A stretch of 64,000 bases of DNA from Dehalococcoidia bacterium (GTDB taxonomy: Bacteria; Chloroflexota; Dehalococcoidia; GIF9; UBA5629). Shown here one piece after another: positions 4,821 through 58,750 of this stretch (positions are counted from its first letter, which is position 1; every line of letters begins with the position of its first letter). The notes beneath the pieces were generated by a model that was given only the letters and a program-made list of their open reading frames with translations, was not told where the DNA came from and ran no database searches. The position numbers and the translations under genes are program-made. The stretch is taken from positions 448,001 to 512,000 of the forward strand of contig JBEKIW010000001.1 of NCBI GenBank assembly GCA_050011565.1, written 5' to 3'.

Positions 4821-4994
4821 AGTTACAAAACAATGTAGCAGAAACTTGCAACCTTGTATGTGGAGTGAAGGTGAAGCAGATGAAATCTATGACTACGGTG
4901 GTTTTCTGAGTGTGATGGTGAAAGTGAAGGATTTTTCCTTGAGTGTAAAACGATAGTGAAGGGAGAGTAAAGGTTTTTCCTTCGAGTGTAGACC

Positions 4995-5249
4995 GATAGT
5001 GAAGGGAGAGTAAAGGAAAATGAAGGTCGTATCCGTCTAAATCAAGCGAGTGTAAGGTTGAGTATAAAAGGAGAGTAAGTCGAGAGTAAAGAAATTTTCT
5101 CCGAGTGTAAAGTGATAGTGAAGGGAGAGTAAAGAAAAATGAAGGTCGTATCCGTCTAAATCAAGCGAGTGTAAGGTTGAGTATAAAAGGAGAGTAAGTC
5201 GAGAGTAAAGAAATTTTCTCCGAGTGTAAAGTGATAGTGAAGGGAGAGT
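4995..5249 (+). repeat. 119-bp near-perfect tandem duplication (about 2.1 copies)
   Basis: Units start at 4995, 5114 and 5233 with GATAGTGAAGGGAGAGT. Confidence 0.95.
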
Positions 5250-5448
5250 GAAGCCCCAGTGACTGATAGTGAAGGGAGAGTAGATGAGAGTAAGGAGAGT
5301 AAAGGTTTTCGCTTTACACTCGAATTCAGTTTATTTTTTCAGTTTTTAAAATCAATGATTTTCGGATAACACCAAACAAAACGATGTTTCGTGCAAAAGG
5401 GTGTAGTCTCATGCCCTCTTTTTCGTCAAAGGCGCCTTGCGTATTCGG

Positions 5449-6301: not shown

Positions 6302-6781
6302 TCATGTTGATGCAGGGAATGGCGGTTTATGGGTAATACCCGCTACCTTAAGAGACTTATTGCGCAGCTTTTCCAGGTATCCATATAATTCCTTGCGCTC
6401 TTGCTTTGTAAGGATTGATAAGACCTGGTTAATAGTCTTTCTATTCAATGAAATATTATAGGCCTGGCGGCCTTTGGGAGTTATGGTAACTCTGACTAGG
6501 TTCTTCTTGTGAAGGTTTTTGGTCCTCTTGATAAGACCATCTTTCTCCATCCTGTCCAGCAAACCAGATACAGAGTGAGGCCGGCGCACGATCCATCTGG
6601 AAATTTCAGCCGGTGTGGCTTCATTGCCGATGGAGTCAATAATAAATAGCGCAGCCGCTTTGATCGTAGATAAACCGTGTTGTTCTAGCTCTCTGTCCCG
6701 AGCGAGTGTGATACCTGAATGAACCTGCTCCAGCATTGTCCATAGGTTATAGATTTCATCAGTAGAATAACTCCCTTTCAT
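6302..6781 (-). CDS. MarR family transcriptional regulator
   Basis: TPAEISRW...SVSGLLDRMEKDGLIKR...VRVTITPKG winged HTH. Confidence 0.9.
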   Translation of the reverse strand: MKGSYSTDEIYNLWTMLEQVHSGITLARDRELEQHGLSTIKAAALFIIDSIGNEATPAEISRWIVRRPHSVSGLLDRMEKDGLIKRTKNLHKKNLVRVTITPKGRQAYNISLNRKTINQVLSILTKQERKELYGYLEKLRNKSLKVAGITHKPPFPAST

Positions 6782-7167
6782 TTTACCACCCCATTTAAAA
6801 CATTAATATAGGAATTTTTCCTATACGTACTATTGATCTATTTTATCACAATGGAATATCGAATTATATGTAAAACTGTTTTGCACGTTATGGCTAATTG
6901 TTCAGCACAATGTGCTTTGATTCTTTCATAAGGCGTACAATGTAAGATCCTTTGAGACCACTTTGCTCACTCCTTTCTATTTCATTGAAGAATAGAATAT
7001 GCTGTTTACTCCGCCAGACTGTCCTAACCCTACCTATAAAGCCATAGGGGTGCACACTGAGCTAGACAGATTTACCGAGTGTGATATAATTACACATGCG
7101 AATGATGAAAAACAGCAAGTTAAAAAAAGAGATGGCAGCTTACTTATGAGTTGAAAGAGCTTTTACT

Positions 7168-8181
7168 ATGTCAAATCTTTTGTACCGAACAGGACTGGGG
7201 AAGTACCTCGTAGGAGATTCTCGGGATTTTCTTAGAGGGAAACTAGGTAAAGAACTCCAGAACAAGGTTCAGTTAATTCTAACATCACCGCCATTTCCCC
7301 TCAATAATAAAAAGCACTATGGTAACTTAGAGGGCAAAGCGTACAAAGACTGGTTTACGAGTCTTGCAGAAATCTTCTCCAAGCTTCTCACGGACAACGG
7401 CTCAATCATCATTGAACTCGGTAACGCATGGGAACCCAGGAGGCCTGTCCAGTCTCTGCTACCAGTAGAATCGTTGCTGGAGTTTGTGAAGAATCCAAAA
7501 GCGGGACTCAGGCTTTGCCAACAATTTGTCTGCTACAACCCCTCTCGACTTCCAACTCCGGCACAATGGGTAACAATCAAACGGATGCGAGTAATCGATA
7601 GCTTCACACACATTTGGTGGATATCAAAGACAGATTACCCGAAAGCAGATAATCGAAAGGTACTGAGGCCTTACAGCAAAAGTATGAAATCCCTTCTCAA
7701 GAAAAAATCATACAATGCCGGCAAGAGGCCATCAGAACATGTCATTGGAGCGAAAAGCTTCTTGAAAGACAATGGCGGCAGCATCATACATAATTTAATA
7801 GAGCTAGAGCCGATTGACGAAAAAAGGGATTTGCGTTTACCTAATGTCTTCAGTATTGCCAATACAAAGTCTAACGATTTCTACACGAGAACCTGCCGTG
7901 AAAGAGGCATTCCCCTGCATCCTACGCGTATGCCTTTAGGGATTGCCTGCTTTTTTATAGAGTTCCTCACGAACCCAGGAGACCTTGTGCTTGACCCATT
8001 TGCAGGGAGCAACACTACCGGTTTCTGCGCCGAAAAGCTTGCTCGTCAATGGATCGCCATAGATATAGATAAAGAATATGGAAAATTTTCCGCGGTCAGA
8101 TTTGAAGACCCGTCCATCAAGGTGCCTCTGATTAAAGAGTTTTCGGAGGAAGACAATGAATGTGCCCGGGACAATACTTAA
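7168..8181 (+). CDS. Site-specific DNA methyltransferase, beta class (probably N4-cytosine)
   Basis: Motif IV TSPPF N-terminal; HPTRMP and motif I VLDPFAGS C-terminal, as in M.PvuII-type enzymes. Confidence 0.9.
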   Translation: MSNLLYRTGLGKYLVGDSRDFLRGKLGKELQNKVQLILTSPPFPLNNKKHYGNLEGKAYKDWFTSLAEIFSKLLTDNGSIIIELGNAWEPRRPVQSLLPVESLLEFVKNPKAGLRLCQQFVCYNPSRLPTPAQWVTIKRMRVIDSFTHIWWISKTDYPKADNRKVLRPYSKSMKSLLKKKSYNAGKRPSEHVIGAKSFLKDNGGSIIHNLIELEPIDEKRDLRLPNVFSIANTKSNDFYTRTCRERGIPLHPTRMPLGIACFFIEFLTNPGDLVLDPFAGSNTTGFCAEKLARQWIAIDIDKEYGKFSAVRFEDPSIKVPLIKEFSEEDNECARDNT

Positions 8182-10156
8182 GTTAGCATCGATCGATATC
8201 TTCCAAGAAGGCAAGAAAAAGGAAACCTTCATCGGACGGCCCTTCTATCTTGATTACAATAAAGCCTGCCTTTTAGTTGCTGATTCATGGAAAAGGAAAG
8301 TCGGTGGCATACCTCAAGGAGCTTTTTTGCTTGCTTTCTACGAGAACGAGGAGAACGTGTCTGAGGCCCTGCTTCTGAGAGCTCTCGGCCCCACTAAGTT
8401 ACCAACTGATAGTGACGTAGTTAGCTCAATGATTGAGTACTATAAAGACAACACCAAAACCGCCGGTAAGGAGACTCAGCTCGATGACTTTACTCGCTAT
8501 GAATTCAGCTTTTCTGGACTTGAGTGCCGCGCTCTCGGCACATTTTACAAAGACCGCAAAGACAACACTACCTTCGGTGCCGATGTAGAGAACTTCTACA
8601 GTGCGCACAACTACAGTGTGTACAAGCCAACTGGTAATATCTTGGAGGTAATATCCAATTTGCGCGACGCGGCTTATATCCCGGGTAACCCTGCCGATGT
8701 TAGGCTCGGCAGAGTAAGGTACAGCTCAAGCCAGAGATTCCAAGAAAAGGAAGACGATGTGCCAGTCTATGTCAGCCCAAAAGATTTTCTAGGTAAAAGA
8801 ACAGCCCTATTCGGTATGACCAGAACTGGCAAATCCAATACAGTTAAGAAAATAATACAGGCCACAGTAGACATTAGCCAGAAGGCGAAGTCTAAGCTAG
8901 CTGAGGGGGCCAAGGATGTTCAAGATAACCTTGATCCATTTATTGATGATGGATCACCAAAATATCCGGTAGGGCAAATAATTTTTGATATGAACGGTGA
9001 ATACGCTAATGCTAACCTGCAAGATGCCGGTACTGCGATCTTTGAACTTTACAAGCAAGATGTTATCAGATATAGCGTGTTAGAAAAGCCAGATTTCAAG
9101 GTAATGAAGACAAATTTTTACACCGATATATTGGCGGGGTTCGATTTAGTCAAATCTTACATTCAGTACGATGCGGGGGATTATGTCAAAAGCTTCACAT
9201 CCATAGATTTGCAAGAACCAGAAGACAAGCAGGATTTCTCAGCCTCAACTAGATATGAGCGAAAAGTAGCAGCATATCTCTGTTGCCTCTATCAGGCTGG
9301 ATTTAAGGCTCCAAAAGACTTTAAAGTCAAATTTAGCGGTAACAAAGAGCTACAAGCAATCGCACCAAGTGATCCGGAAAAGGGTATGACACTGCCCGAA
9401 GCGGCAGGTTGGTTTAGCAACGTTTGGGACGAATATGATGATTTCCAGTTTTTCGCCGATTATAAGAAAAAGTCGGGCCACGAGTGGGCGGATGAGGATC
9501 TCAAAGCAATCCTAATTTTCCTGTCAAGGAAAACCAAGCCAGGCGGAAACCCCACAGTCAGTGGCTATAAAAAACTGAGAGGTATAATCAACCTACACAC
9601 ACAAACGGTAGAAAAACCTTTCCAAAAAGACATAAAGGATTCCTTACGGGAAGGTAAAATAGTCATCATTGATTTATCACAAGGCGAGCCGGACATCCAA
9701 CGTCTCTATTCTGAAAGAATCTGTGCAGAGATATTTCAGGACGCCATGCAGAGATTTACTAGCAATAAGCCCAACAACTTTCTCCAATTCTATTTTGAAG
9801 AGGCACATAACCTTTTCCCAAGGAAAGAGGACAAAGATCTAAGCCAGATATATAATCGGCTGGCAAAAGAAGGCGCTAAACTGAATCTGGGCTTAATTTA
9901 TGCAACGCAGGAAGTTAGCTCAATTAGCCCTAATATTTTGAAAAATACGCAGAACTGGTTTATCGCGCATCTGAATAACGAGGATGAGCTTAGAGAAATC
10001 AGAAAATATTATGACTTCTCAGATTTCGCAGAAAGCCTAATCAGGTTCAATGCGAGTACCGACAAGGGATTTGTACGTATGAAAACATATTCAAATCCTT
10101 TTGTTGTTCCAGTTCAAATAGATAGATTCATTGTCAAAAAGGAGAATCTTCAATAA
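8156..10156 (+). CDS. herA: HerA/DUF87 family ATPase (DNA translocase)
   Basis: Walker A FGMTRTGKS, IIFDMNGEY, Walker B FYFEEAHN, RLAKEGAK..L..ATQ. Confidence 0.88.
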   Translation: MNVPGTILKLASIDIFQEGKKKETFIGRPFYLDYNKACLLVADSWKRKVGGIPQGAFLLAFYENEENVSEALLLRALGPTKLPTDSDVVSSMIEYYKDNTKTAGKETQLDDFTRYEFSFSGLECRALGTFYKDRKDNTTFGADVENFYSAHNYSVYKPTGNILEVISNLRDAAYIPGNPADVRLGRVRYSSSQRFQEKEDDVPVYVSPKDFLGKRTALFGMTRTGKSNTVKKIIQATVDISQKAKSKLAEGAKDVQDNLDPFIDDGSPKYPVGQIIFDMNGEYANANLQDAGTAIFELYKQDVIRYSVLEKPDFKVMKTNFYTDILAGFDLVKSYIQYDAGDYVKSFTSIDLQEPEDKQDFSASTRYERKVAAYLCCLYQAGFKAPKDFKVKFSGNKELQAIAPSDPEKGMTLPEAAGWFSNVWDEYDDFQFFADYKKKSGHEWADEDLKAILIFLSRKTKPGGNPTVSGYKKLRGIINLHTQTVEKPFQKDIKDSLREGKIVIIDLSQGEPDIQRLYSERICAEIFQDAMQRFTSNKPNNFLQFYFEEAHNLFPRKEDKDLSQIYNRLAKEGAKLNLGLIYATQEVSSISPNILKNTQNWFIAHLNNEDELREIRKYYDFSDFAESLIRFNASTDKGFVRMKTYSNPFVVPVQIDRFIVKKENLQ

Positions 10157-11518
10157 ATGGGATATAGCAGTAGAAGAGGTCGCAGACCACAAGAAAATGC
10201 CAGCAAGTCATCTCATAGCTACATTGTCAATGACCCCACTGTTATTGATTTTCTCCACAAGTGTGATCTGCCAAAGATGGCAGCAGAGATTTCGCTTCCA
10301 CAAGTTCTCAAATCCAAAGTTGAAAATGTTAACAAGAATCCGATTAACTATGTTATTGCGATCGATGGGGGATATTCCGAGGTCTTCGTAAGAAAGGAAT
10401 TTCCATCTTCTACCATCACTTTCTTTCAATTCGGAGTGCTCGCATTCAATGTTACCGACTTGGAGGATCTAGGGGAACAACCGTTTATTGATCCCGAAGA
10501 TATAGCGAAGTTAAAGAACATACAGAGGCTAAAACTGACCATCCCAACAAAGAATATTAGTTTGACGGGCGAGAAGTCATTGACAGATTCTGTTAGAAGA
10601 GCACTTTATGACTTCTTTAAAGCAAAGGTAGAGGGAGAACAGCTCCTAAAGACGCTAAAATGGTTCATATTTAATGAATATCAAACACCCTCCTCGCAGT
10701 GGAATCTGGCCACTTGCCCTAATATCCAGTCAGATCTGCATAACGTCCTGCTTGACAAAAACAAGATGCAAAGTGATTTCACTTTTACTTGCGAAAAGTG
10801 CGGAGAGAGGATATTCCTCACTGATGTTTTTCGACTTCACGAAGCAATCGATGACGAGCTCGGAGCAGGCGGCATACTCGGCTACACTACGGTGCTCATT
10901 GAACAAATGCTGCTTGTTCACTTGCTTAAGGTTATTCTCAATACCAAACCTTCTCTGTTAAATGAGATTATCTTCATCAAAGATGGGCCATTGGCTTTTT
11001 TTGGACAGACAGCGAACATGCACAAGCCTATGAGGCAACTGGCCAATTTCCTCCTCGGGAAATATAACTTGTACCTGGCCGGGCTTGAGAAGAGTGGTTC
11101 TTTTGTCGACCATGCTGATGAAATAGCCAATAAGCTTGAACTGGGCGAGGTACTCCTGCTTAACAATGAGTATATCTATAAATACATTATTCCTAGCAAT
11201 GCGGATACAAGCGCCCCCTATGCAAGATCATCTTATTACGGAGGAAAACTCATATATAAAGCTAGAAGTGGTGGAATTTATGTTGTGACAGTCCCGGTGA
11301 AAGACGAGAAAGTTGTATTATCTCCAAGCCGGAAGGATTTTCAAAACTTAGATATTATATTGAGTAATATAGAAAAACTCAGATGCGATATGTATGATTC
11401 TGCGCTTATTCCAGTGGCCTTAGTGAATAAACTTGTTTCATTAGCGGACCACCCAAGTTCAGCCATTCTCGAAAGATTTGCTAAAGCGGGAGTAGGAGCA
11501 CCCAGAGTGGTCAATTAA
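10157..11518 (+). CDS. nurA: NurA family nuclease
   Basis: VIAIDGG and IKDGPL acidic motifs, GLEKSG, IPVAL; starts immediately after the herA stop. Confidence 0.8.
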   Translation: MGYSSRRGRRPQENASKSSHSYIVNDPTVIDFLHKCDLPKMAAEISLPQVLKSKVENVNKNPINYVIAIDGGYSEVFVRKEFPSSTITFFQFGVLAFNVTDLEDLGEQPFIDPEDIAKLKNIQRLKLTIPTKNISLTGEKSLTDSVRRALYDFFKAKVEGEQLLKTLKWFIFNEYQTPSSQWNLATCPNIQSDLHNVLLDKNKMQSDFTFTCEKCGERIFLTDVFRLHEAIDDELGAGGILGYTTVLIEQMLLVHLLKVILNTKPSLLNEIIFIKDGPLAFFGQTANMHKPMRQLANFLLGKYNLYLAGLEKSGSFVDHADEIANKLELGEVLLLNNEYIYKYIIPSNADTSAPYARSSYYGGKLIYKARSGGIYVVTVPVKDEKVVLSPSRKDFQNLDIILSNIEKLRCDMYDSALIPVALVNKLVSLADHPSSAILERFAKAGVGAPRVVN

Positions 11519-11801
11519 CTTGAGAATTTTGCCTCAAAAGTGGTCATTTATCTTGAGAATCGACACAATCCACGGTATTGCCATTACAACATGACAGTTG
11601 TGAGAATATGCCGACTTCGACGGGATGGGAGTGATCAGGACAAAGAGAAGTTGTCTTATCGGGATGGGTATTGGAACACATTCTGACGAAAAGTGCAGAC
11701 TGTACCACTTATTTGTGGTTGAGACGATGAAGAGTCTGACTCCATCGGAAACTCAGGGTTATGGCGCGACTAGGTCGATACAACAAGCTGAGGCACACCA
11801 A

Positions 11802-14438
11802 TCACTTGGCCCAGACAATCTCTTTGGCCGCCCCAATATTACTGTATCGGCCTGGCACACAGGTGAAAATCACAATCTGGCATTCCTTTGCCGCTTTGGC
11901 TAGTACGGCGCCCATCAGGGACAATCTTTCCGGATCAGTATAGCCAAGTGTATCGTCGACAATTACTGGAGCACCACCATCTGTGGCTACTATCATCGCG
12001 CACGCCAAGCGAAAGATTAGCGAAAGCTGCTCCTTTGTTCCCCCACTCAAGCTATCGAAACCAACCGTGATATTATTCAATGTGCGGCTGACTATTTGTA
12101 GATCGTCACTTATCTCTACCTGAAAGGTATGGTCGAAAACTAGGCGACCTAGTGCCTCAATCCTCTCCCTAAGCGGTGCGACATAAGCGTGACGTGCCCT
12201 GTCACGTTCCTCAGACATAGTCCTATAGAGCAGATTTGCAGCTTCCGCCCGTTTGGCTAACGACGCGTTTTCATGTTCAGCGCGCGAGAGCGCAGTCCGA
12301 GCAACGCCTAATTTATCATAGAGGCCATCCTCTCCGTTGATCTTGAGGCGAGTAGTTACCTCTGTTAGCTCTTTTTCTGTCTTTTTCATCTGTTGCTGTA
12401 TTCTGGTTAATGACTCTCTGGCCGTCTTATCAAGTTCCCTTTCCTGCTCCGGGTTGAGCACTCCGAGCGTTGCCTCGGCATCTTTAACGTCGGTCTCTGC
12501 CTTTGCCAACACCTTTACTGCGCTTTCGAGTGCTACACTGACCCCTTCATCGGGCACAGTCGCTCTCTCTTCTTCCAACGTTTTCTCAAGGCCGACCAAA
12601 TGCTGCTTTTGATGCTCCCACACAGATCGCGCTTCTATGTAGTCTCCATTCCGGCGTTCACATAGTTTTTTTACCTCATCGAAGGCTGCCTTTGCCTCGT
12701 TCCATTCTGTTTCAAGACCGTGCTGCTTCTTCTCCAATCTCGCCAATTCGGTTTTTGTTAGATCAGAGCTATCCAATATTGATGGCTCTGACACCCGCGC
12801 GGGCAGATAAGCTGGCACGGTCTGCTGTAATCTCAACAGTCGGCCTGCCAACTCGTCATAAGAAAGGTCCCGCAGATTATCCTTCTCAACCCGCCTCATT
12901 TCCGCGATCTGTCTAGAGGCCTCTTGCCTTTCCTGAAAAGCCTCTCGTGCCTTATCTGCACCAGTAATCCCCAGAGAGGCGCAGACCTCGCTTAGCTTCG
13001 CCTCGGCATCCTCAACCTTCTTTGAAAGCGTGTCAACACTGGAACCGGCTGTTATCTCCATCTCCAATTTATCGGGCACGACTAAATTGACCTTGTCAGG
13101 TACCTGAAAGGAAAGCTCTTTCCCTTGTCCCAATTTGACGGTGGTGCCATCTTTGATCAACCTGCATTCTTGTAATCCGCGCAACAAGACAGCAGGAGCC
13201 TTAGCTTCTCGTTTTGCCCTTGCGGTTATTACTTCGGCCTGAGCCGCCTCAATGGCCCGAAGAGCTTCTTCGTCAACCCTATTTGTTGCTAGAATTGCCT
13301 GTGAGTGAGCGGCCATCTCCCTTGCTCGGTCAACACGATCCTTACGTTCTTGCAGTAGTTCAAGGTCAAGCTTGGCACGAAAATAGTCATAGTCGCGCCG
13401 CCGCAAATCGGTCAACTCACGGATTTCTTTCAGCTTTCTTTCGGCGGCATTGCAAGCTGTCTCTGCCGTTTTGGACTCGTCCCTGGCTTGGTTGAGTGAA
13501 GCAAGCCTCGAATCTGTAGATTTGCCCATTTCAGCTTCCGCCTTGGTAGCATCCGAGACCTTGTTGACAAGCTCTTCGCGCGCTCTCTTATCCGCGCGTG
13601 CTGCCTTTTCCGAGACCTTTGCCACTTGCAGGTTAAGCCTCGCCTCCGAGAGACGCTGATCCAGTTCGGTTATCTGTTTGAGTTTGTCTGAGCGGTTTTC
13701 CAATTCGTTCGCAATCGTCTGCTCAGAGTATTCGAGCTCACCTAATTCCCGTCTGAGATCACTAGCTCGATCGATATCATGCTCGAGGTCACGCAGCGCC
13801 TCTTCAAACTTCTGAACTTCCGATTGGCAATCTGATAATGCCTGGCGACATTCCTCCAGCTCTTTCTTCTCGGCTCCTCCTGGAGTGAAATAGTTTGAGT
13901 ACTCCGCATGAACCGCTTCGAAGAGGCTTTCAGCTTTCGGATCAGTCGAATGTCCGCCAGCTGCCCGATCTAGTGCTTGAGAAAGCCAAGTCTGCTCTGT
14001 AAGTTTTGGCTGCTTAATCTCTGCGCCTTGCCTAATGCTCAAAGCTTTCCAAAGATTGACGTCCAAGGTTCCCCTAAGTATTGCGTCTGCGCGCTCGTGG
14101 GCTCGCCTGCCGGTCAGACTCTCGGCTTTTGGCTTGGTAATGGTGAGCCTGGTCTCCGGTTTCTTGAAATAACGCTTAAAGTACGTGAACTGATAGGGGC
14201 CGCTCTCCGCCTCTAGTTCGATCTCTGTCCCTTCGTCGCGATGAACCGGCCTGATGGCCATGAGATCGCTGTGCTTGCTAGAATCCGCATATCCAAAGAG
14301 AATCCAGACTGCCTCCCCTAAACTGGTTTTTCCTATCTCATTGGGGCCTCTAACCAGAGTGATACCGGTTCCGGCGAATTCTGCCTCACGCTCGGAAACG
14401 CCCCTATAATTGGCAATCCGCAAACGGACATATCTCAT
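11802..14438 (-). CDS. Rad50/SbcC-like SMC ATPase (Rv1278/YhaN-like)
   Basis: Walker A GPNEIGKT, long coiled coil, signature LSGGTKEQ, Walker B/D-loop IVDDTLGYTD. Confidence 0.9.
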   Translation of the reverse strand: MRYVRLRIANYRGVSEREAEFAGTGITLVRGPNEIGKTSLGEAVWILFGYADSSKHSDLMAIRPVHRDEGTEIELEAESGPYQFTYFKRYFKKPETRLTITKPKAESLTGRRAHERADAILRGTLDVNLWKALSIRQGAEIKQPKLTEQTWLSQALDRAAGGHSTDPKAESLFEAVHAEYSNYFTPGGAEKKELEECRQALSDCQSEVQKFEEALRDLEHDIDRASDLRRELGELEYSEQTIANELENRSDKLKQITELDQRLSEARLNLQVAKVSEKAARADKRAREELVNKVSDATKAEAEMGKSTDSRLASLNQARDESKTAETACNAAERKLKEIRELTDLRRRDYDYFRAKLDLELLQERKDRVDRAREMAAHSQAILATNRVDEEALRAIEAAQAEVITARAKREAKAPAVLLRGLQECRLIKDGTTVKLGQGKELSFQVPDKVNLVVPDKLEMEITAGSSVDTLSKKVEDAEAKLSEVCASLGITGADKAREAFQERQEASRQIAEMRRVEKDNLRDLSYDELAGRLLRLQQTVPAYLPARVSEPSILDSSDLTKTELARLEKKQHGLETEWNEAKAAFDEVKKLCERRNGDYIEARSVWEHQKQHLVGLEKTLEEERATVPDEGVSVALESAVKVLAKAETDVKDAEATLGVLNPEQERELDKTARESLTRIQQQMKKTEKELTEVTTRLKINGEDGLYDKLGVARTALSRAEHENASLAKRAEAANLLYRTMSEERDRARHAYVAPLRERIEALGRLVFDHTFQVEISDDLQIVSRTLNNITVGFDSLSGGTKEQLSLIFRLACAMIVATDGGAPVIVDDTLGYTDPERLSLMGAVLAKAAKECQIVIFTCVPGRYSNIGAAKEIVWAK

Positions 14439-15565
14439 GACAGACCACCACTCAACCTAACCAGCAACGCAAGCGCGTCGCGGGCGGTTCTCTTCTCCAT
14501 TCCCTCCCCGACCATCTTTTCACGCAATTGCCTTACGGTCGCTTCAGCGAACCCGGAGAAATTAAGGCCGGAGAAATCTGCATCGTTCGGCAAAACTAAC
14601 AACTCATCATCACTCATTTGAAAAGACGCGAATACGTCGCCGATGGTAGCCAGAAATTGCCGCAGGATCGCCTCCTGGGTGAGGGAAATAGACCCCACTA
14701 GGTTCAGCCGGAGTACCGTCAGTTCCTTTCGGTCTATGCTTTCCAGCATGCTTCGCAACGCCTCGATGTCCTCGGAGCAGTTGATATCAACGCGATTCTT
14801 CTCGACAAAGCGCCACTGACCGACTGGGGCAGGTGTCGCAATCACTTTATCGCCATCCAATTCAACAATTTGTACATAGCCAGTCTCACCTTCCCCGAAG
14901 TCCGTAACCTCTGGCGTGCCAGAATACCAGATACGCTCACCCTCACCGATCTTAGTGCGTGAATGGCGGTCACCCAACGCCACAAAGGAGGCCTTTCTCT
15001 CTTCGATGACACGCTCTAGACTATCTGCCGTAAGTACCCCAAGGTCATCCTTTCTGGGTGTAAACAAATCGACAATACCGTGCGCCAAGATAATCCGGGT
15101 GACGCCAGTTAGTGGTTCAAGTGACTTCGTCGCTTCGTAAAATGGGTTCACTGGCATGCGCTTTGACAGCCATGGGGCCCCAACCAGTTCGACGTTGTGA
15201 TCCGCTTGGATCGGGGTTGCATCGCTAATCACATTGACGTTAGCCGGTTTCCCTTGCACAAAGCTCTTGGAGGAATAGACCGAGGCCTCATTCAGGGGAT
15301 CATGATTACCGGGCAGAATCCAGACGGGGAGTGGGACTTCCTTGAGCGCCTCAAGGGCACGCGCAACCGTTTTTCGGTCTACCTGGTTGGATTCAAACGC
15401 ATCTCCGCAGACTACTACGAACTGGCAATTAGATTCCGTTGCAATTTTGCCGAGCGTGCGGATCGCATCAAAGCGTGCCTGGTTGAAACGCTCCTGAGCC
15501 CCCTCGGAGAACAAGTAGCGAGTCATGCCAAGCTGCCAATCGCTTGTGTGGAGGAAACGAACCAT
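14435..15565 (-). CDS. Mre11/SbcD-like DNA repair exonuclease (Rv1277-like)
   Basis: FLHTSDWQLG, CGDAFE, PGNHD, LAHG, ALGDRHS, YSGTPE; 4-nt overlap with the SMC gene. Confidence 0.9.
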   Translation of the reverse strand: MVRFLHTSDWQLGMTRYLFSEGAQERFNQARFDAIRTLGKIATESNCQFVVVCGDAFESNQVDRKTVARALEALKEVPLPVWILPGNHDPLNEASVYSSKSFVQGKPANVNVISDATPIQADHNVELVGAPWLSKRMPVNPFYEATKSLEPLTGVTRIILAHGIVDLFTPRKDDLGVLTADSLERVIEERKASFVALGDRHSRTKIGEGERIWYSGTPEVTDFGEGETGYVQIVELDGDKVIATPAPVGQWRFVEKNRVDINCSEDIEALRSMLESIDRKELTVLRLNLVGSISLTQEAILRQFLATIGDVFASFQMSDDELLVLPNDADFSGLNFSGFAEATVRQLREKMVGEGMEKRTARDALALLVRLSGGLS

Positions 15566-51852: not shown

Positions 51853-53283
51853 ATGGTTTTTAACATAACAGTCAAGAATTTCAAATCGATATCCTCTATT
51901 GACTTGGCACTCAAAGAAGGTTTGAACATTCTGATTGGCCCTAACGGGTCAGGTAAGACTTGCATACTCACTTCACTAAAATTCGTGCGTGATTTGTTTG
52001 TATTAGGGGCCGCACAAGCGACGGCAAGAAATGGAGGAGCCACACGTATATTCCGAAGAGGAGAGGATACAGTCTCATTCTCCATAGAACACGATTATGG
52101 TGACAGAGTATATCGAAAACGAAAATGGCCATGCACATTCTCTTGGAGAGTTGAGATTTCTCAGATGGGGCCAGAGAAGATTGCCGCCATAAAGTGTGAG
52201 GACGTGAGTATATATGCTAATGTGCGAGGCAAGCAAAAGCTTCTATTTCGCTTGAATGTTGACCGAGGAAATCCACAAAGCACTAAAACAATACTGCACC
52301 TATCTGAACCCCATGAATTCGGGCGTGACCTATTCTCACGGTGGAATAGGATGTTTTCATCCAAGTCAAAGAAAGACATACATAGTGAATTTGAGGAAAG
52401 AATGCTGCGGCTTATTATTAGACGGGCAAGAGTACGACCAGATGAGTCCGTGTTTCCACTCATTATGAGATTTGATGACAAACTTCAACATTTATATAAC
52501 CTCTTCTTCTATCTTAATGAATATAATATTCACCCTGATACCGCGCGACAATCCGCAGAGCGTCTGCCTTTCGCTAAAATGCAGCCAAATGGAGATGGGG
52601 TAGCTGAAGTAATCGACGCATTGGAGAAGAGGAGCTTTGATAGAATAGAGTTGGCCCGATATTATGGTATGGAAAGCTTTATGGGTTACGATTACCCCAT
52701 GACTGATTTTCCATATTATGCATACCCTCATCGTTATGATTACAGATTTCGGAGATACACTCCTACGGAACTGCAGAGAGTCTACAAACAGGCCTTCGAA
52801 AACATTAACAAGGAATTATCTGCAGCAGTAAAACCTATTGAAAGTGTAAGTGTTAAGATAGATGAGACTAACGGCAAGCGATTCGTCGTCTTTCGGGCAG
52901 GCAAGGAAACATTTTATCCGCAGGAAGTTTCTGACGGAACCATAAAATGGTTGTGTATTTTGGTTAGCATTTTTGTTCCATATTCCTCGGTTTATATACT
53001 CGAGGAGCCGGAGAACTTCCTTCACCCTTGGATGCAGCAACGATTAATCAGCATGATGCGAGAACATGCGAAGATAAACAATGCTATTTTCGTACTGGCA
53101 TCTCACTCGTCTACAGTACTCAATTCGGCGTTTGCCGAAGAGGTTCTTATTGTAAGTCAAACCAAGGATGGTACGAAAATCAACGAAATTGCTGATAAAG
53201 AAGAAATAGAGCGTGTTCTTCTGGAATCTGACTTCCGTCTTGGTGATTTCTGGGTAAGTGGCGCATTAGGTGGAGTTCCTTAG
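51853..53283 (+). CDS. AAA_21/ABC-type ATPase
   Basis: IGPNGSGKT, VSDGT signature, ILEEPENFLHP, ASHS. Confidence 0.88.
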   Translation: MVFNITVKNFKSISSIDLALKEGLNILIGPNGSGKTCILTSLKFVRDLFVLGAAQATARNGGATRIFRRGEDTVSFSIEHDYGDRVYRKRKWPCTFSWRVEISQMGPEKIAAIKCEDVSIYANVRGKQKLLFRLNVDRGNPQSTKTILHLSEPHEFGRDLFSRWNRMFSSKSKKDIHSEFEERMLRLIIRRARVRPDESVFPLIMRFDDKLQHLYNLFFYLNEYNIHPDTARQSAERLPFAKMQPNGDGVAEVIDALEKRSFDRIELARYYGMESFMGYDYPMTDFPYYAYPHRYDYRFRRYTPTELQRVYKQAFENINKELSAAVKPIESVSVKIDETNGKRFVVFRAGKETFYPQEVSDGTIKWLCILVSIFVPYSSVYILEEPENFLHPWMQQRLISMMREHAKINNAIFVLASHSSTVLNSAFAEEVLIVSQTKDGTKINEIADKEEIERVLLESDFRLGDFWVSGALGGVP

Positions 53284-53284
53284 C

Positions 53285-53842
53285 ATGCGTAAGGTTGGCG
53301 TTATTGTAGATGGGCAAGGTGATTATAACAGTCTAAAGGCTCGATTTGTAGAAAATTGTAGGATTCTAAAGACAGACGGGCCGAGAAGCCATACTACTCC
53401 CATTGAAGCTATTGTGTTAGGTTCTCGCAAACAAATCTCCATGCTCAGGGCTTGCGGTTGCAACAAAGTAGTAATCCTAACTGATTTTGAAATGAGAACG
53501 GATGACTATGATCACTTCGTTGCTACGTTAAGAAGCCGATTAACTGCTCAGTATGCTGGAAATCGAGTCACTGCAGCTGTCCCAAATAGGATGATAGAAA
53601 ACTGGTATCTAGCTGATATTGAACAGTTGTCGAGTCAGAAATCCTTTATCATGAACAATTTAAGGCAGAAGAATTACGAAGGTTCGAATGGCAAAGATGA
53701 GCTTAAGAAGTGTTTTACAGGCAAACACTCATATAGCGAAACAATACACGGCCCCCAAATGTTCGAGATTCTCAGATTTCACATAGCAAGGCGTAACAGT
53801 GGCTCCCTGCATGACTTTCTTCTGATACTTGAAGGAAACTGA
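53285..53842 (+). CDS. DUF4276-like (TOPRIM-like) protein
   Basis: GVIVDGQGD, ILTDFE, MIENWYLAD, YSETIHG, SLHDF; coupled to the ATPase. Confidence 0.7.
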   Translation: MRKVGVIVDGQGDYNSLKARFVENCRILKTDGPRSHTTPIEAIVLGSRKQISMLRACGCNKVVILTDFEMRTDDYDHFVATLRSRLTAQYAGNRVTAAVPNRMIENWYLADIEQLSSQKSFIMNNLRQKNYEGSNGKDELKKCFTGKHSYSETIHGPQMFEILRFHIARRNSGSLHDFLLILEGN

Positions 53843-55693: not shown

Positions 55694-58600
55694 ATGATGA
55701 CTCTAAATATTAAACCCGGTCATAAATCGGTCAAAGCATACTATGAAGCTATCAGTAGCCTCTCTGACCTTGGTGTGGCACATGAAGGCGCTGTATCACC
55801 GGCTTTTGCCTCATTAATTCGCCATTGCGCCGGTCAATTCGACCAGACACTCATTGAGAAGTACCCCTTTAAAACTGGCACGCATACCAAATTTGTTGAT
55901 GGCGCTCTGGTCGACACGTTCAACCTTGTGCATGGCTATTGGGAGGCAAAGGATACCAGCGATGACCTCGACAAAGAAATAAAGAAAAAGTTTGATGCTG
56001 GCTATCCTAAGAATAACATACTTTTTCAAGCACCAGACCGTATTGTTGTATGGCAAGATGGACAAAAGGTCTTTGATGAGGATATCTCTAAGCCAGAACT
56101 TCTCATAGAAGGTCTAAAAGTCTTCTTCGAATACGAGGCACCTGCCTTTGAGCAGTGGCAGAAGGCTGTCGAAGAATTCAAACTCAAAGTACAAGAATTA
56201 GCCACCGGCTTGCTTGGACTCATCGAAAAGGAACGCCAAACCAACAGCCTTTTTATTCAGGCATTCAACGATTTTGTTCAACTCTGCCAGGAGACCATTA
56301 ATCCCAATATCTCAATTCAGGCTGTAGAGGAGATGCTTATTCAACACCTACTTACCGAGCGCATTTTCCGCAAAGTCTTTAATAACCCCGATTTCGTTGA
56401 ACGAAATGTCATAGCCCATGAAATTGAAAAAGTCATCTCAGCTCTGACATCGCAATACTTTAGCCGCAACGAGTTCCTCAAGCCGCTTGACCGCTTCTAT
56501 GTCGCTATTGAGACGACCGCGGCCACTATCGACGATTTCTCCCAGAAGCAGAGCTTCCTTAACACGGTTTATGAAAAGTTCTTCCAGGGCTTCTCAGTCA
56601 AAGTGGCTGACACACACGGCATAGTCTATACTCCGCAGCCCATCGTGAAATTTATAGTCAAATCCGTAGAGCATATCCTGCAAAAAGAGTTTGGGCGTTC
56701 TCTCTCCGATCAGGGGGTGCATATTATTGACCCATTCGTCGGCACCGGCAATTTCATTTTGTGGGTTATGCGGGAGATGCAGCGCTCAAGATTACCCTAC
56801 AAGTATGTCAGTGAGCTCCACTGCAACGAGGTCATGCTTCTGCCCTACTACATCGCCTCGATGAATATTGAGCATGAGTATTATGAGGCTACAGGAAACT
56901 ACCAGCCGTTTGAGGGAATCTGCCTTGTTGATACCTTTGACCTTGCTAAAGTAAAGCAACTCTCGTTTTTTACTAAAGAGAACACTGCGAGAGTTAAGCG
57001 GCAGCAGAGTACACCCATTTTCGTCATCATTGGCAATCCGCCTTATAACGCCGGACAGGTAAACGAAAATGATAACAACAAGAATCGTAAATACGAGGAA
57101 ATAGATAGGCGTGTTTCACAAACCTATGGAAAGGGTTCAAAAGCCACTTTACTCAGAAAATTGAACGACCCCTACGTTAAAGCTATACGCTGGGCATCGG
57201 ACAGAATCGGTGACGAAGGAATAGTAGCCTTTGTGACCAATAATAGCTTTGTAAATGAAATTACTTTCGACAGTATGAGAAAGTGTTTAGAAGAGGATTT
57301 CAATTCCATTCATATTTTAGATTTAGGTGGCAATACTCGTAAGAACCCGAAGCTATCCGGCACCACTCACAATGTCTTCGGCATTCAAGTAGGGGTAAGT
57401 CTTAATCTCTTTGTGAAGATGAAAAGTAAATTGCCCAAGAAGGCCAAGATATATTATGCCCGGGTCGATGAACTCTGGCGCAAAGAACAGAAGTACGATT
57501 TCCTTAATGAGAAGCAGTACTTTACCAATGTGCAATGGAAAGAAGTCATACCTGACAGAAACCATACTTGGCTAACCGAAGGCTTACGAAGTGACTTTGA
57601 AACATTCATGCCGGTGGCAAAACCGAAGGTAAAAGCGGGCGGACCTGAATCATTTTCTATATTCAATACTGTTTCGCCCGGTGTTAACACCGCCCGTGAT
57701 GCACTGGTTTACCATTTTAACAGGCAAAGTCTTGAGAAGAGCGCACAACAATTTGGCGATTATTATAACTCGGAAGTGTACCGCTATATCCAAAAAAATA
57801 AACCCCAAGATATTGATAGCTTCGTGAATTACGACCATATTAAATGGAGCAGAAATCTAAAACGGCATTTGAAGAATACCGATACATTCAATTTTGATAG
57901 ACAACGTATCCGTGCAAGCCTTTACAGGCCATTTACTAAGCTGTATCTGTATTATGCAGATATCATAGTGGATGAACCTGGTATCCATGAACGATTGTTC
58001 CCCCTTCATTCTGTAGATGAAAACCATGTGATTTGTGTGAACCTGTCTGGTGAAAAGCCATTTTGCTGCTTGATGTCAAATGTAATTCCGAACTTCGTCA
58101 TGTGTGGTGGTTTCGGCGCAGCTACCGCGTGCTTCCCCTTGTTCACGTACTCGGAAGATAGCACTAACCGGCAGGACAACATAACAGATTGGGCACTAAT
58201 TCAATTTCAAGAGCACTACCAAGACAACCATATTTCAAAGCTGGATATATTCCACTATATCTATGCTGTCCTACATCACCCTCAGTACCGTGAGAAATAT
58301 GCGGCCAATTTGAAACGCGAGCTGCCGCGCATACCTTTTGCCCCCGATTTCTGGGAATTCGCCAAGGCTGGGAAGCAGCTCGCAGAGCTTCATATAAACT
58401 ATGAAGGACAAACCGAATACCCGCTTACCTGGTTAGAAAATAAAGATGCTAAGGTAAATTATCGTGTAGAGAGAATGACCCTGTCCAAGGACAAAACGCA
58501 TATTGTCTACAATGACTTTCTCACTTTGGATGGTATCCCTCCGGAGGTTTTTGAATACCGTTTGGGCAACCGCTCTGCTCTCGATTGGATTATTGACCAG

Positions 58601-58750
58601 TATCAAATAAGTACCGATAAAAGAAGTGGCATAGTCAATGACCCAAACAGGGTCGACGACTCCCAGTACATCATACGTCTTATTGGTAAAGTAGTTTCGG
58701 TTAGCTTGAACACTGTTAAGATAGTTAATTCTTTACCCGGACTCTTTTAG
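55694..58750 (+). CDS. Single-chain restriction-modification enzyme (type IIG with ISP-like C-terminal specificity domain)
   Basis: VDG...YWEAKD nuclease motif, GIVYTP, IDPFVGTG, IGNPPY, YRPF, YAVLHHPQYREKYAANLKRELPRIP. Confidence 0.88.
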   Translation: MMTLNIKPGHKSVKAYYEAISSLSDLGVAHEGAVSPAFASLIRHCAGQFDQTLIEKYPFKTGTHTKFVDGALVDTFNLVHGYWEAKDTSDDLDKEIKKKFDAGYPKNNILFQAPDRIVVWQDGQKVFDEDISKPELLIEGLKVFFEYEAPAFEQWQKAVEEFKLKVQELATGLLGLIEKERQTNSLFIQAFNDFVQLCQETINPNISIQAVEEMLIQHLLTERIFRKVFNNPDFVERNVIAHEIEKVISALTSQYFSRNEFLKPLDRFYVAIETTAATIDDFSQKQSFLNTVYEKFFQGFSVKVADTHGIVYTPQPIVKFIVKSVEHILQKEFGRSLSDQGVHIIDPFVGTGNFILWVMREMQRSRLPYKYVSELHCNEVMLLPYYIASMNIEHEYYEATGNYQPFEGICLVDTFDLAKVKQLSFFTKENTARVKRQQSTPIFVIIGNPPYNAGQVNENDNNKNRKYEEIDRRVSQTYGKGSKATLLRKLNDPYVKAIRWASDRIGDEGIVAFVTNNSFVNEITFDSMRKCLEEDFNSIHILDLGGNTRKNPKLSGTTHNVFGIQVGVSLNLFVKMKSKLPKKAKIYYARVDELWRKEQKYDFLNEKQYFTNVQWKEVIPDRNHTWLTEGLRSDFETFMPVAKPKVKAGGPESFSIFNTVSPGVNTARDALVYHFNRQSLEKSAQQFGDYYNSEVYRYIQKNKPQDIDSFVNYDHIKWSRNLKRHLKNTDTFNFDRQRIRASLYRPFTKLYLYYADIIVDEPGIHERLFPLHSVDENHVICVNLSGEKPFCCLMSNVIPNFVMCGGFGAATACFPLFTYSEDSTNRQDNITDWALIQFQEHYQDNHISKLDIFHYIYAVLHHPQYREKYAANLKRELPRIPFAPDFWEFAKAGKQLAELHINYEGQTEYPLTWLENKDAKVNYRVERMTLSKDKTHIVYNDFLTLDGIPPEVFEYRLGNRSALDWIIDQYQISTDKRSGIVNDPNRVDDSQYIIRLIGKVVSVSLNTVKIVNSLPGLF

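Follow-up and report, generated by a model that had tools for sequence, protein, structure and literature searches.

What does a DNA methyltransferase (MTase) do when its gene runs directly into the genes for a HerA-like motor and a predicted NurA-fold nuclease? We asked this of a three-gene locus in a 64,000-nucleotide stretch of a Dehalococcoidia bacterium genome (GenBank assembly GCA_050011565.1, contig JBEKIW010000001.1, positions 448,001 to 512,000, forward strand). This whole stretch is what we call the window, and positions are counted from its first letter unless a contig or another locus is named. The initial annotation of the window, made from the sequence alone, had read the trio as a restriction-modification (R-M)-like defence system in which the MTase marks self DNA and HerA-NurA destroys unmarked DNA. 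Our analysis makes it reasonably likely that the trio is a self-contained, mobile R-M-like defence cassette whose methylation would spare self DNA from a HerA-NurA shredder. By analogy it most likely represents the methylation counterpart of the phosphorothioate-based system TdpABC, that is, a HerA-NurA restriction module coupled to cytosine methylation.

Three coupled genes encode a methyltransferase, a HerA-like motor and a predicted nuclease

The genes are coupled just as first described, with coordinates and junctions that proved exact (Table 1). Read in the sequence, the herA ATG (8156) lies inside the MTase gene, whose TAA ends at 8181, an overlap of 26 nucleotides (nt). GGAGGA stands 7 nt upstream of that ATG, and the herA TAA (10154–10156) directly abuts the nurA ATG (10157). 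The GC content of the trio region (7001–11500) is 0.40–0.45, compared with 0.49–0.53 for 11501–15500 and a genome mean of 0.489. The trio is indeed more AT-rich than the adjoining gene, as had been noticed, and that gene turned out to be SbcC/Rad50-like rather than SMC. Besides the trio, the interval 6782–11800 holds no open reading frame (ORF) of at least 80 amino acids (aa) except ones nested in the trio and a 92-aa ORF, which overlaps the start of the next gene and has no Pfam or NCBIfam match.

The first protein is a beta-class MTase of the SPPF type, in agreement with its earlier assignment: motif IV (in LILTSPPF, residues 36–43) precedes motif I (DPFAGSNTTG, 276–285), and it matches Pfam N6_N4_Mtase (2.1e-29) as well as the PADLOC model MTase_II PDLC03323 (4.5e-82). 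It aligns with M.PvuII (PDB 1boo) over residues 6–320 against 10–302, at E 3.3e-69 for the sequence and 1.3e-86 for a profile, with a 17-residue insertion relative to M.PvuII. SPPF is invariant in 29 of 29 aligned homologues and aligns with the SPPF of M.PvuII; D276, P277, F278, G280, T283 and T284 are invariant in the same 29. SPPF-type beta-class enzymes are usually N4-cytosine methylases, and the target of M.PvuII is CAGCTG. The molecule in 1boo is named “N-4 cytosine-specific methyltransferase PvuII”. Judged by this homology, the product is probably N4-methylcytosine (m4C), possibly at CAGCTG or a similar site.

The second protein, of 666 aa, is HerA-like, and its Walker A motif GMTRTGKS, reported in the initial annotation, was confirmed at residues 220–227. 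This motif is invariant in 29 of 29 homologues and aligns with the P-loop of TdpA. Walker B reads FYFEEAH (545–551), with Y546, F547, E548, E549 and H551 invariant in the 29 homologues and YFEEAH aligning with LEEAHN of TdpA. TdpA is also the best PDB match (8wet; E 1.3e-18 with the single sequence and 2.3e-21 with a profile, the next match being at 1.7e-10), in an alignment that covers the P-loop and residues 474–659. Pfam places the protein in DUF87/HerA (DUF87, 1.2e-14). PADLOC HerA models match its C-terminal part only (up to 8.7e-22), and the anti-phage HerA models likewise reach the C-terminal ATPase part only, with 53 bits against a cut-off of 800. Scores against the NCBIfam families helicase_HerA (30.1 bits, cut-off 970) and HerA_Thermprot (26.4 bits, cut-off 800) are also low. 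The spacing between Walker A and Walker B is about 120 residues longer than in archaeal HerA.

The third protein has no above-threshold match in Pfam, NCBIfam or PADLOC. Against Pfam NurA, the copy in the window reaches E 0.094 and 12.6 bits (cut-off 21), an hhalign comparison with the genome’s own canonical NurA gave a probability of 0.2, and phmmer and profile searches against PDB sequences returned nothing relevant. Its relatives and its modelled fold are more informative. Pfam NurA is matched by 17 of 28 family members at E ≤ 0.1 (best 1.3e-7). A Foldseek search with an AlphaFold2 model (predicted local distance difference test, pLDDT, 73.6; predicted template modelling score, pTM, 0.77) returned ten best-ranked matches that are all NurA-type, with Sulfolobus solfataricus NurA (2ygk) at rank 13. 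The closest solved relative is TdpB, and the protein belongs with it as a TdpB-type NurA-fold partner. On the model, then, the nuclease is NurA-fold; the NurA label given at first holds, with its support coming from the fold and from Pfam NurA matches in relatives, the protein’s own match being below threshold. The family is large and strongly conserved: at least 2168 protein clusters match at E ≤ 0.001 among the best 8000 candidates scored, and the best 120 matches listed are 58–91% identical.

Residues D70 (in IDGG), E249, D276 (in KDGP), E311, K312 and H319 of the nuclease are invariant in 45 of 45 intact trios, which are defined below. The active site of Pyrococcus furiosus NurA is given as Asp/Glu/Asp with a His in the available part of its description (PMC3300031). 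The invariant residues appear to fit this site by their order and predicted secondary structure, a mapping made by inference rather than by superposition. The Cys-containing insert that had been reported lies at residues 187–215. Of 45 family members, 43 have it as a CPxC...CxxC zinc ribbon; zinc-ribbon Pfam models match 11 of 28, and the insert is among the least conserved segments of the nuclease. The window copy and its nearest relative (L004) are without the second Cys and have a His 7–8 residues after the first.

The three genes are inherited together and move between distant hosts

We scanned for the locus in one genome per species and confirmed 171 loci among 182 pattern matches. The 81 loci examined below are the best 80 of these 171 combined with a set of three, two of which are shared. 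In 76 of the 81, the NurA-like gene is immediately preceded by the HerA-like gene, and four of the five misses fall at locus ends. A PvuII-like MTase gene lies directly upstream of the HerA-like gene in 64 of 73 judgeable loci, a few copies being split or truncated, so the MTase linkage on which the initial annotation had built is common in the family. All three genes are full-length in 44 of 81 loci and in the window, with gaps of -53 to +33 nt. When 983 ORFs were clustered all against all, no further gene recurred in more than 10 of the 81 loci. No classical restriction endonuclease accompanies the trio, as had been stated: the operon has no extra ORF, and neither a conserved gene nor a cluster resembling a cognate site-specific endonuclease was found with the MTase across the 81 loci.

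The three proteins have also diverged together. Over the 45 intact trios, Mantel correlations of the distance matrices are 0.80 for MTase and HerA, 0.88 for MTase and NurA, and 0.91 for HerA and NurA (p = 0.001 each). Correlations of this kind indicate co-inheritance of the three proteins, not contact between them.

The hosts of the 45 intact trios carry 13 phylum labels, with Methanosarcinales archaea nested among bacteria. In a FastTree phylogeny of the HerA-like protein alone, the window copy is paired with one from Pirellulales (77% identity, support 99), away from the five of Chloroflexota; phylum labels are nevertheless clustered on the tree (15 changes vs 24.7 in shuffles). Searches of 13 genomes of the same genus and 24 of the same family did not find the NurA-like protein in any of them, and 16 same-order genomes gave one weak match (E 2.7e-4). 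The host itself is bacterial by its 16S (1533 bits on the bacterial model), its genome is 2.0 Mb and 99% complete, and its RpoB fragment has its best matches in Dehalococcoidales metagenome-assembled genomes (69–71% identity). From these sequence relationships we conclude that the cassette is horizontally mobile between distant microbes.

The borders of the window copy are less clear. There is no tRNA at window positions 1–24000, there are no flanking direct repeats, and scans of the flanking ORFs gave no integrase. The genes on either side are accessory as well (of 13 same-genus genomes, one has the SbcC-like gene and one the UPF0489 gene), so a clean insertion site is not definable.

Separately, Pfam matches place recombinases or transposases near some cassette copies, and one interrupts a HerA gene. 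At locus L028 (6440–7603), a Mutator-family transposase (1.3e-112) sits between a truncated HerA-like and the NurA-like gene, one of several decayed copies.

The genome of the window also has a canonical pair, NurA (PF09376, 1.2e-29) and HerA (PF01935, 2.7e-31), at contig positions 298774–301497, about 150 kb upstream of the trio. The trio itself falls outside the repair HerA/NurA equivalogs on the scores given above. Repair-type features were also absent where sought, with linkage to mre11-rad50 in 0 of 81 loci and, as to vertical inheritance, presence in 0 of 13 same-genus genomes. By sequence, the trio’s HerA-NurA is not the host’s repair HerA-NurA, and the archaeal end-resection complex that the initial annotation took as its model gives way to a TdpAB-like pair.

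The cassette lies among defence genes and usually keeps a methyltransferase

We compared the 138 nearest upstream and downstream neighbours of the trio (113 clusters, one representative each) with PADLOC models. Matches at E ≤ 1e-20 were found for 38 of the 138, in 36 of 76 loci, a descriptive count without a background rate. Among the matches are Septu PtuA/PtuB, AbiEii, Type III Res, a Type IV R-M enzyme, DruE, BrxA, a CBASS cyclase and other methylases. A defence-gene setting, which the initial annotation had proposed to check, is seen among the immediate neighbours of the trio.

The loci that lack an adjacent MTase are informative in another way. They number 9 of the 73 judgeable, and seven of the nine have intact HerA-NurA. 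Six of those seven genomes encode a PvuII-family MTase elsewhere (45–54% identity), one with an internal stop, and in the seventh, two other genes for DNA MTases lie less than 3 kb from the locus. In the two genomes without a PvuII-like MTase, HerA is truncated in one, and HerA is missing and NurA truncated in the other. This pattern, in small numbers, is what would be expected if unmethylated self DNA were at risk.

How the cassette may work

Linkage, mobility, defence context, and homology to M.PvuII and TdpAB all fit the R-M-like reading given in the initial annotation; what has changed is that the HerA-NurA pair is TdpAB-like and that an analogue is already known. In the scheme we favour, the M.PvuII-family MTase would mark host DNA, and the HerA-like ATPase would assemble into a translocating ring to which a NurA-like dimer docks, as in the solved TdpAB complex. 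Because of the analogy with the solved TdpAB and HerA-NurA complexes, we infer that a HerA hexamer with a NurA dimer would thread and processively shred unmarked DNA such as that of phages and plasmids. That the methyl mark would spare self DNA is suggested by the linkage together with the TdpABC analogy. As a guess, methylated sites might stall or disengage the translocating complex, or the MTase itself might aid recognition.

Several points weigh against this scheme. The MTase recognition region is uniformly conserved (0.69–0.89 per 20-residue block over the 45 trios), without the diversification of specificity that is common in R-M systems; being nearly invariant, it suggests that the whole family probably shares one target site. 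The genome of L017 has intact HerA-NurA and a sole PvuII-like MTase homologue with a stop, and that of L043 has intact HerA-NurA and no member of the PvuII-like MTase family. In the window nuclease, the insert has C187, C212 and C215, with Ile in place of the second Cys of CPxC. TdpA reads a backbone modification, and none of the features found explains how a ring motor would read base methylation. PADLOC-DB v2.0.0 has no named system that matches all components (the MTase is the generic MTase_II, the motor matches HerA and mad8 in part, and the nuclease matches nothing), and the literature searched holds no functional data for the trio family. Finally, the available parts of two reports describe a NurA-HerA(TdtA)-methylase operon, that of ICETh1, as needed for DNA donation, with a minor role for its methylase (PMC5365140, PMC7767461).

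Site avoidance adds to these points. CAGCTG is the most depleted of the 64 6-bp palindromes in the host genome (389 observed vs 761 expected, observed/expected ratio 0.51). Of five same-genus genomes sampled at 100–200 kb each, three show an equal depletion (ratios 0.39, 0.39 and 0.44; 0.72 and 0.69 in the other two). In those three (G005, G010 and G008) it ranks first or second, no NurA-like protein was found, and no PvuII-like MTase was found at E ≤ 1e-10. Pooling the flanks of 77 other host loci places it at rank 6 of 64 (ratio 0.72) or 12 of 64, depending on the model. Since relatives without the cassette show the same depletion, it belongs to the genus and is uninformative about the cassette, and we dropped CAGCTG avoidance as evidence of specificity.

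A bolder version of the scheme would make the cassette a new class of R-M system, a processive shredder without sequence-specific cleavage. The m4C marks would then act as stop or disengage signals, much as Chi does for RecBCD or phosphorothioates do for TdpAB, and self DNA would be spared by mark density. On that argument the near invariance of the recognition region over more than 12 phyla would imply one shared mark, and hence a motor or nuclease, perhaps by way of the zinc-ribbon insert, that co-evolved to read it. We regard this version as rather unlikely.

It is unlikely, in our estimate, that HerA-NurA defends without reference to any mark, acting on free ends or upon infection as SIR2-HerA and DUF4297-HerA do, with the MTase as a companion that shields the element from PvuII-type restriction, forms an addiction or epigenetic module, or serves in regulation. 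The partners of HerA in known systems do act without a methylase (PADLOC HerA matches; PDB 8j4u, 8xau, 9c1m), and we identified no methylation-reading domain in the trio. The HerA-NurA of Thermococcus kodakarensis breaks down both strands of linear dsDNA, and in the available part of that report its authors suggest a role against foreign DNA (PMC12977600). Intact HerA-NurA without an adjacent MTase occurs in 7 of 73 judgeable loci, one genome having only the stop-containing homologue, yet in the other direction stand the 64 of 73 loci with the MTase directly upstream, its co-divergence with both partners (r 0.80–0.88), and the decay of HerA or NurA in the two genomes that have no PvuII-like MTase. 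In TdpAB, moreover, the modification is said to spare self DNA.

The cassette could also be a DNA-transfer module of a mobile element, with the motor exporting DNA and the nuclease trimming it, and we hold this to be quite improbable. Its precedent is ICETh1 of Thermus thermophilus. In the available part of the main report, TthHB27I/Tth111II, a NurA-like protein, TdtA and a PF01555 methylase are encoded in one co-transcribed operon, and mutation of the NurA-like gene or TdtA lowers transjugation by 4–5 orders of magnitude or abolishes it (PMC5365140); loss of the methylase has minor effects in the accessible portion of a second (PMC7767461). The trio shares the three kinds of protein, is mobile, and has recombinases or transposases near some copies. 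Its gene order differs, though, as does the size of its nuclease (453 aa vs 377 aa for the ICETh1 protein as described), and beside the window copy there is no Type IIG gene, integrase, tRNA (1–24000) or flanking direct repeat. No gene typical of integrative and conjugative elements is conserved in the 81 loci, where the neighbours are mainly defence genes.

Ordinary double-strand-break end resection together with the SbcCD-like pair that lies convergent 284 nt downstream, an orphan methylase standing alongside, would suit a NurA fold and a HerA-family ATPase, but it is very improbable given 30 bits against a 970-bit equivalog cut-off, the canonical pair about 150 kb away, and an SbcCD-like pair that is unlinked to the trio in 81 loci and present in 1 of 13 same-genus genomes, the trio’s NurA-like protein being in none of the 13.

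If the trio is the R-M-like cassette that we favour, HerA-NurA, best known from archaeal repair, would have been taken up at least twice as the destructive arm of an immunity based on DNA modification, once with phosphorothioates in TdpABC and once with cytosine methylation, the methylation form being the widespread one. It would provide an R-M architecture without a site-specific endonuclease and would raise the question of how a ring translocase senses base methylation. The homology to M.PvuII gives a testable start, with a predicted m4C mark and a commercial enzyme for preparing protected substrates. Because defence-annotation libraries miss the nuclease, such cassettes now appear in annotations as “DNA repair” genes beside an orphan methylase.

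Other features of the window and of related loci

The positions of the genes, motifs and other features are collected in Table 1. The promoter-like site upstream of the MTase gene is the best match in 6600–12000, with 11 of 12 consensus positions. It is a consensus match alone, since the region holds 10 such sites against a shuffle mean of 10.7, that is, no excess.

Table 1. Positions of the trio, its sequence motifs and other features in the window
Feature	Position	Strand	Length or remark
Beta-class DNA methyltransferase, M.PvuII family, probable N4-cytosine	7168..8181	+	337 aa
HerA/FtsK-superfamily ring ATPase, TdpA-like (predicted)	8156..10156	+	666 aa
NurA-fold (RNase H-like) nuclease, TdpB-like (predicted)	10157..11518	+	453 aa
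Catalytic motif IV SPPF	7285..7296	+	MTase residues 40–43
S-adenosylmethionine-binding motif I DPFAGSNTTG	7993..8022	+	MTase residues 276–285
Walker A GMTRTGKS	8813..8836	+	HerA-like residues 220–227
Walker B / catalytic Glu YFEEAH	9791..9808	+	HerA-like residues 546–551
Zinc-ribbon-like insert	10715..10801	+	nuclease residues 187–215, 3 Cys
Promoter-like TAGACA-16 nt-TATAAT, TG before -10	7063..7090	+	78 nt upstream of methylase ATG
Tandem repeats	4939..5295		three 119-nt units
92-aa ORF	11625..11903		92 aa
SbcC/Rad50-like and SbcD/Mre11-like pair	11802..15565	-	878 aa and 376 aa
HEC-01-like pair	51853..53842		about 40 kb from the trio
Type ISP/IIG-like restriction-methylase	55694..58750		1018 aa

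The SbcCD-like pair matches the curated Rad50, Mre11 and SbcD families only weakly and is linked to the trio in 0 of 81 other loci. It is an accessory pair that may be a separate defence or repair module. Further along the window are a HEC-01-like pair of an AAA_21/AAA_15 ATPase and a DUF4276 protein (HEC-01A 4.7e-39, HEC-01B 4e-13) and a Type ISP/IIG-like restriction-methylase (PADLOC 1.8e-224; Type_ISP_C 2.9e-98), so that, by homology, the window holds several defence systems. Upstream of the cassette, a non-coding low-GC stretch between small ORFs contains three tandem units (100%, 87% and 64% identity to the first) with six copies of a 28-nt sub-repeat.

Some neighbours recur at other loci. 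A Septu-like pair of PtuA and PtuB/HNH (roughly 750 and 295 aa) is present in 10 loci (L033, L036, L039, L051–L053, L055, L076, L077 and L079), and in nine of them it comes first after the nuclease gene; in L033 (9335–12468) its start overlaps the nuclease gene by 4 nt, which would suit co-transcription with the cassette. Eight loci (for example L054, L057, L062, L064, L065 and L067) have an AbiEi/AbiEii toxin-antitoxin pair immediately upstream, and in L054 (3435–5026) this pair overlaps the start of the methylase gene by 8 nt. A PD-(D/E)XK gene (PDDEXK_1, 2.1e-15) directly follows the NurA-like gene in four loci, including L005 (9341–10093) and L007 (9223–10116), and may be an optional fourth component.

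Comparison with known systems

The initial annotation did not recognise the trio as a named system, and no name for it was found in PADLOC, NCBIfam or the literature searched. There is a close analogue, TdpABC, and the NurA-HerA-methylase operon of ICETh1 serves DNA donation in the available part of its report (PMC5365140). In the literature searched, the trio is neither named nor tested; An et al. 2025 (Nat Chem Biol 21:1160), on TdpABC, and Iyer et al. 2004 may bear on priority. One review, of 2026, assigns bacterial NurA-HerA complexes a role in immune defence but cites no reference for it (PMC13748450).

The known systems share parts of the trio in different combinations. From the archaeal and Deinococcus HerA-NurA resection complex it differs in not being an equivalog, not being vertically inherited and having no Mre11-Rad50 linkage. 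SIR2-HerA and DUF4297-HerA likewise combine a HerA-family hexamer with an effector in defence islands, but they use a SIR2 NADase or DUF4297 nuclease as effector and have no methylase. Type III R-M systems (Mod and Res) also couple a beta-class PF01555 methylase to an ATP-driven motor-nuclease; their Res joins an SF2 helicase and a PD-(D/E)XK nuclease in one protein, whereas the trio has HerA and NurA. They offer a possible model in which the methylase would supply sequence recognition. With the PvuII Type II system the trio shares its MTase, whose homology to M.PvuII spans the whole protein, central recognition region and SPPF included. In place of the small PD-(D/E)XK endonuclease and C-protein of PvuII, neither of which is conserved with the trio in the 81 loci, its partners are an ATPase and a NurA-fold nuclease. 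ICETh1, compared here through the available part of its published description, likewise combines in a single mobile-element operon a NurA-like protein, a hexameric ATPase of the HerA/FtsK family and an N4/N6 methylase, in the order NurA-HerA-MTase and with a Type IIG enzyme, as opposed to MTase-HerA-NurA in the trio.

TdpABC comes closest. The trio has a TdpA-type HerA-like ATPase and a TdpB-type nuclease, for which the solved TdpAB structures (8wet, 8wfd and 8y1k) are the reference. Its proteins are larger (666 vs 586 aa for TdpA, 453 vs 358 aa for TdpB), the nuclease is 12% identical to TdpB, and the zinc-ribbon insert is the trio’s own. TdpABC is a system of thermophiles, and the hosts of the trio are mostly mesophiles from many phyla. 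In TdpABC, phosphorothioates reportedly inhibit the grip and translocation of TdpA and so spare self DNA. According to the available part of one account, TdpABC is the third phosphorothioate-based R-M system, and TdpC alone makes the mark (PMC12914056). The modification gene is where the two part: TdpABC has the phosphorothioate synthase TdpC, a single gene, and the only conserved third gene of the trio across the 81 loci encodes instead a PF01555, M.PvuII-like MTase.

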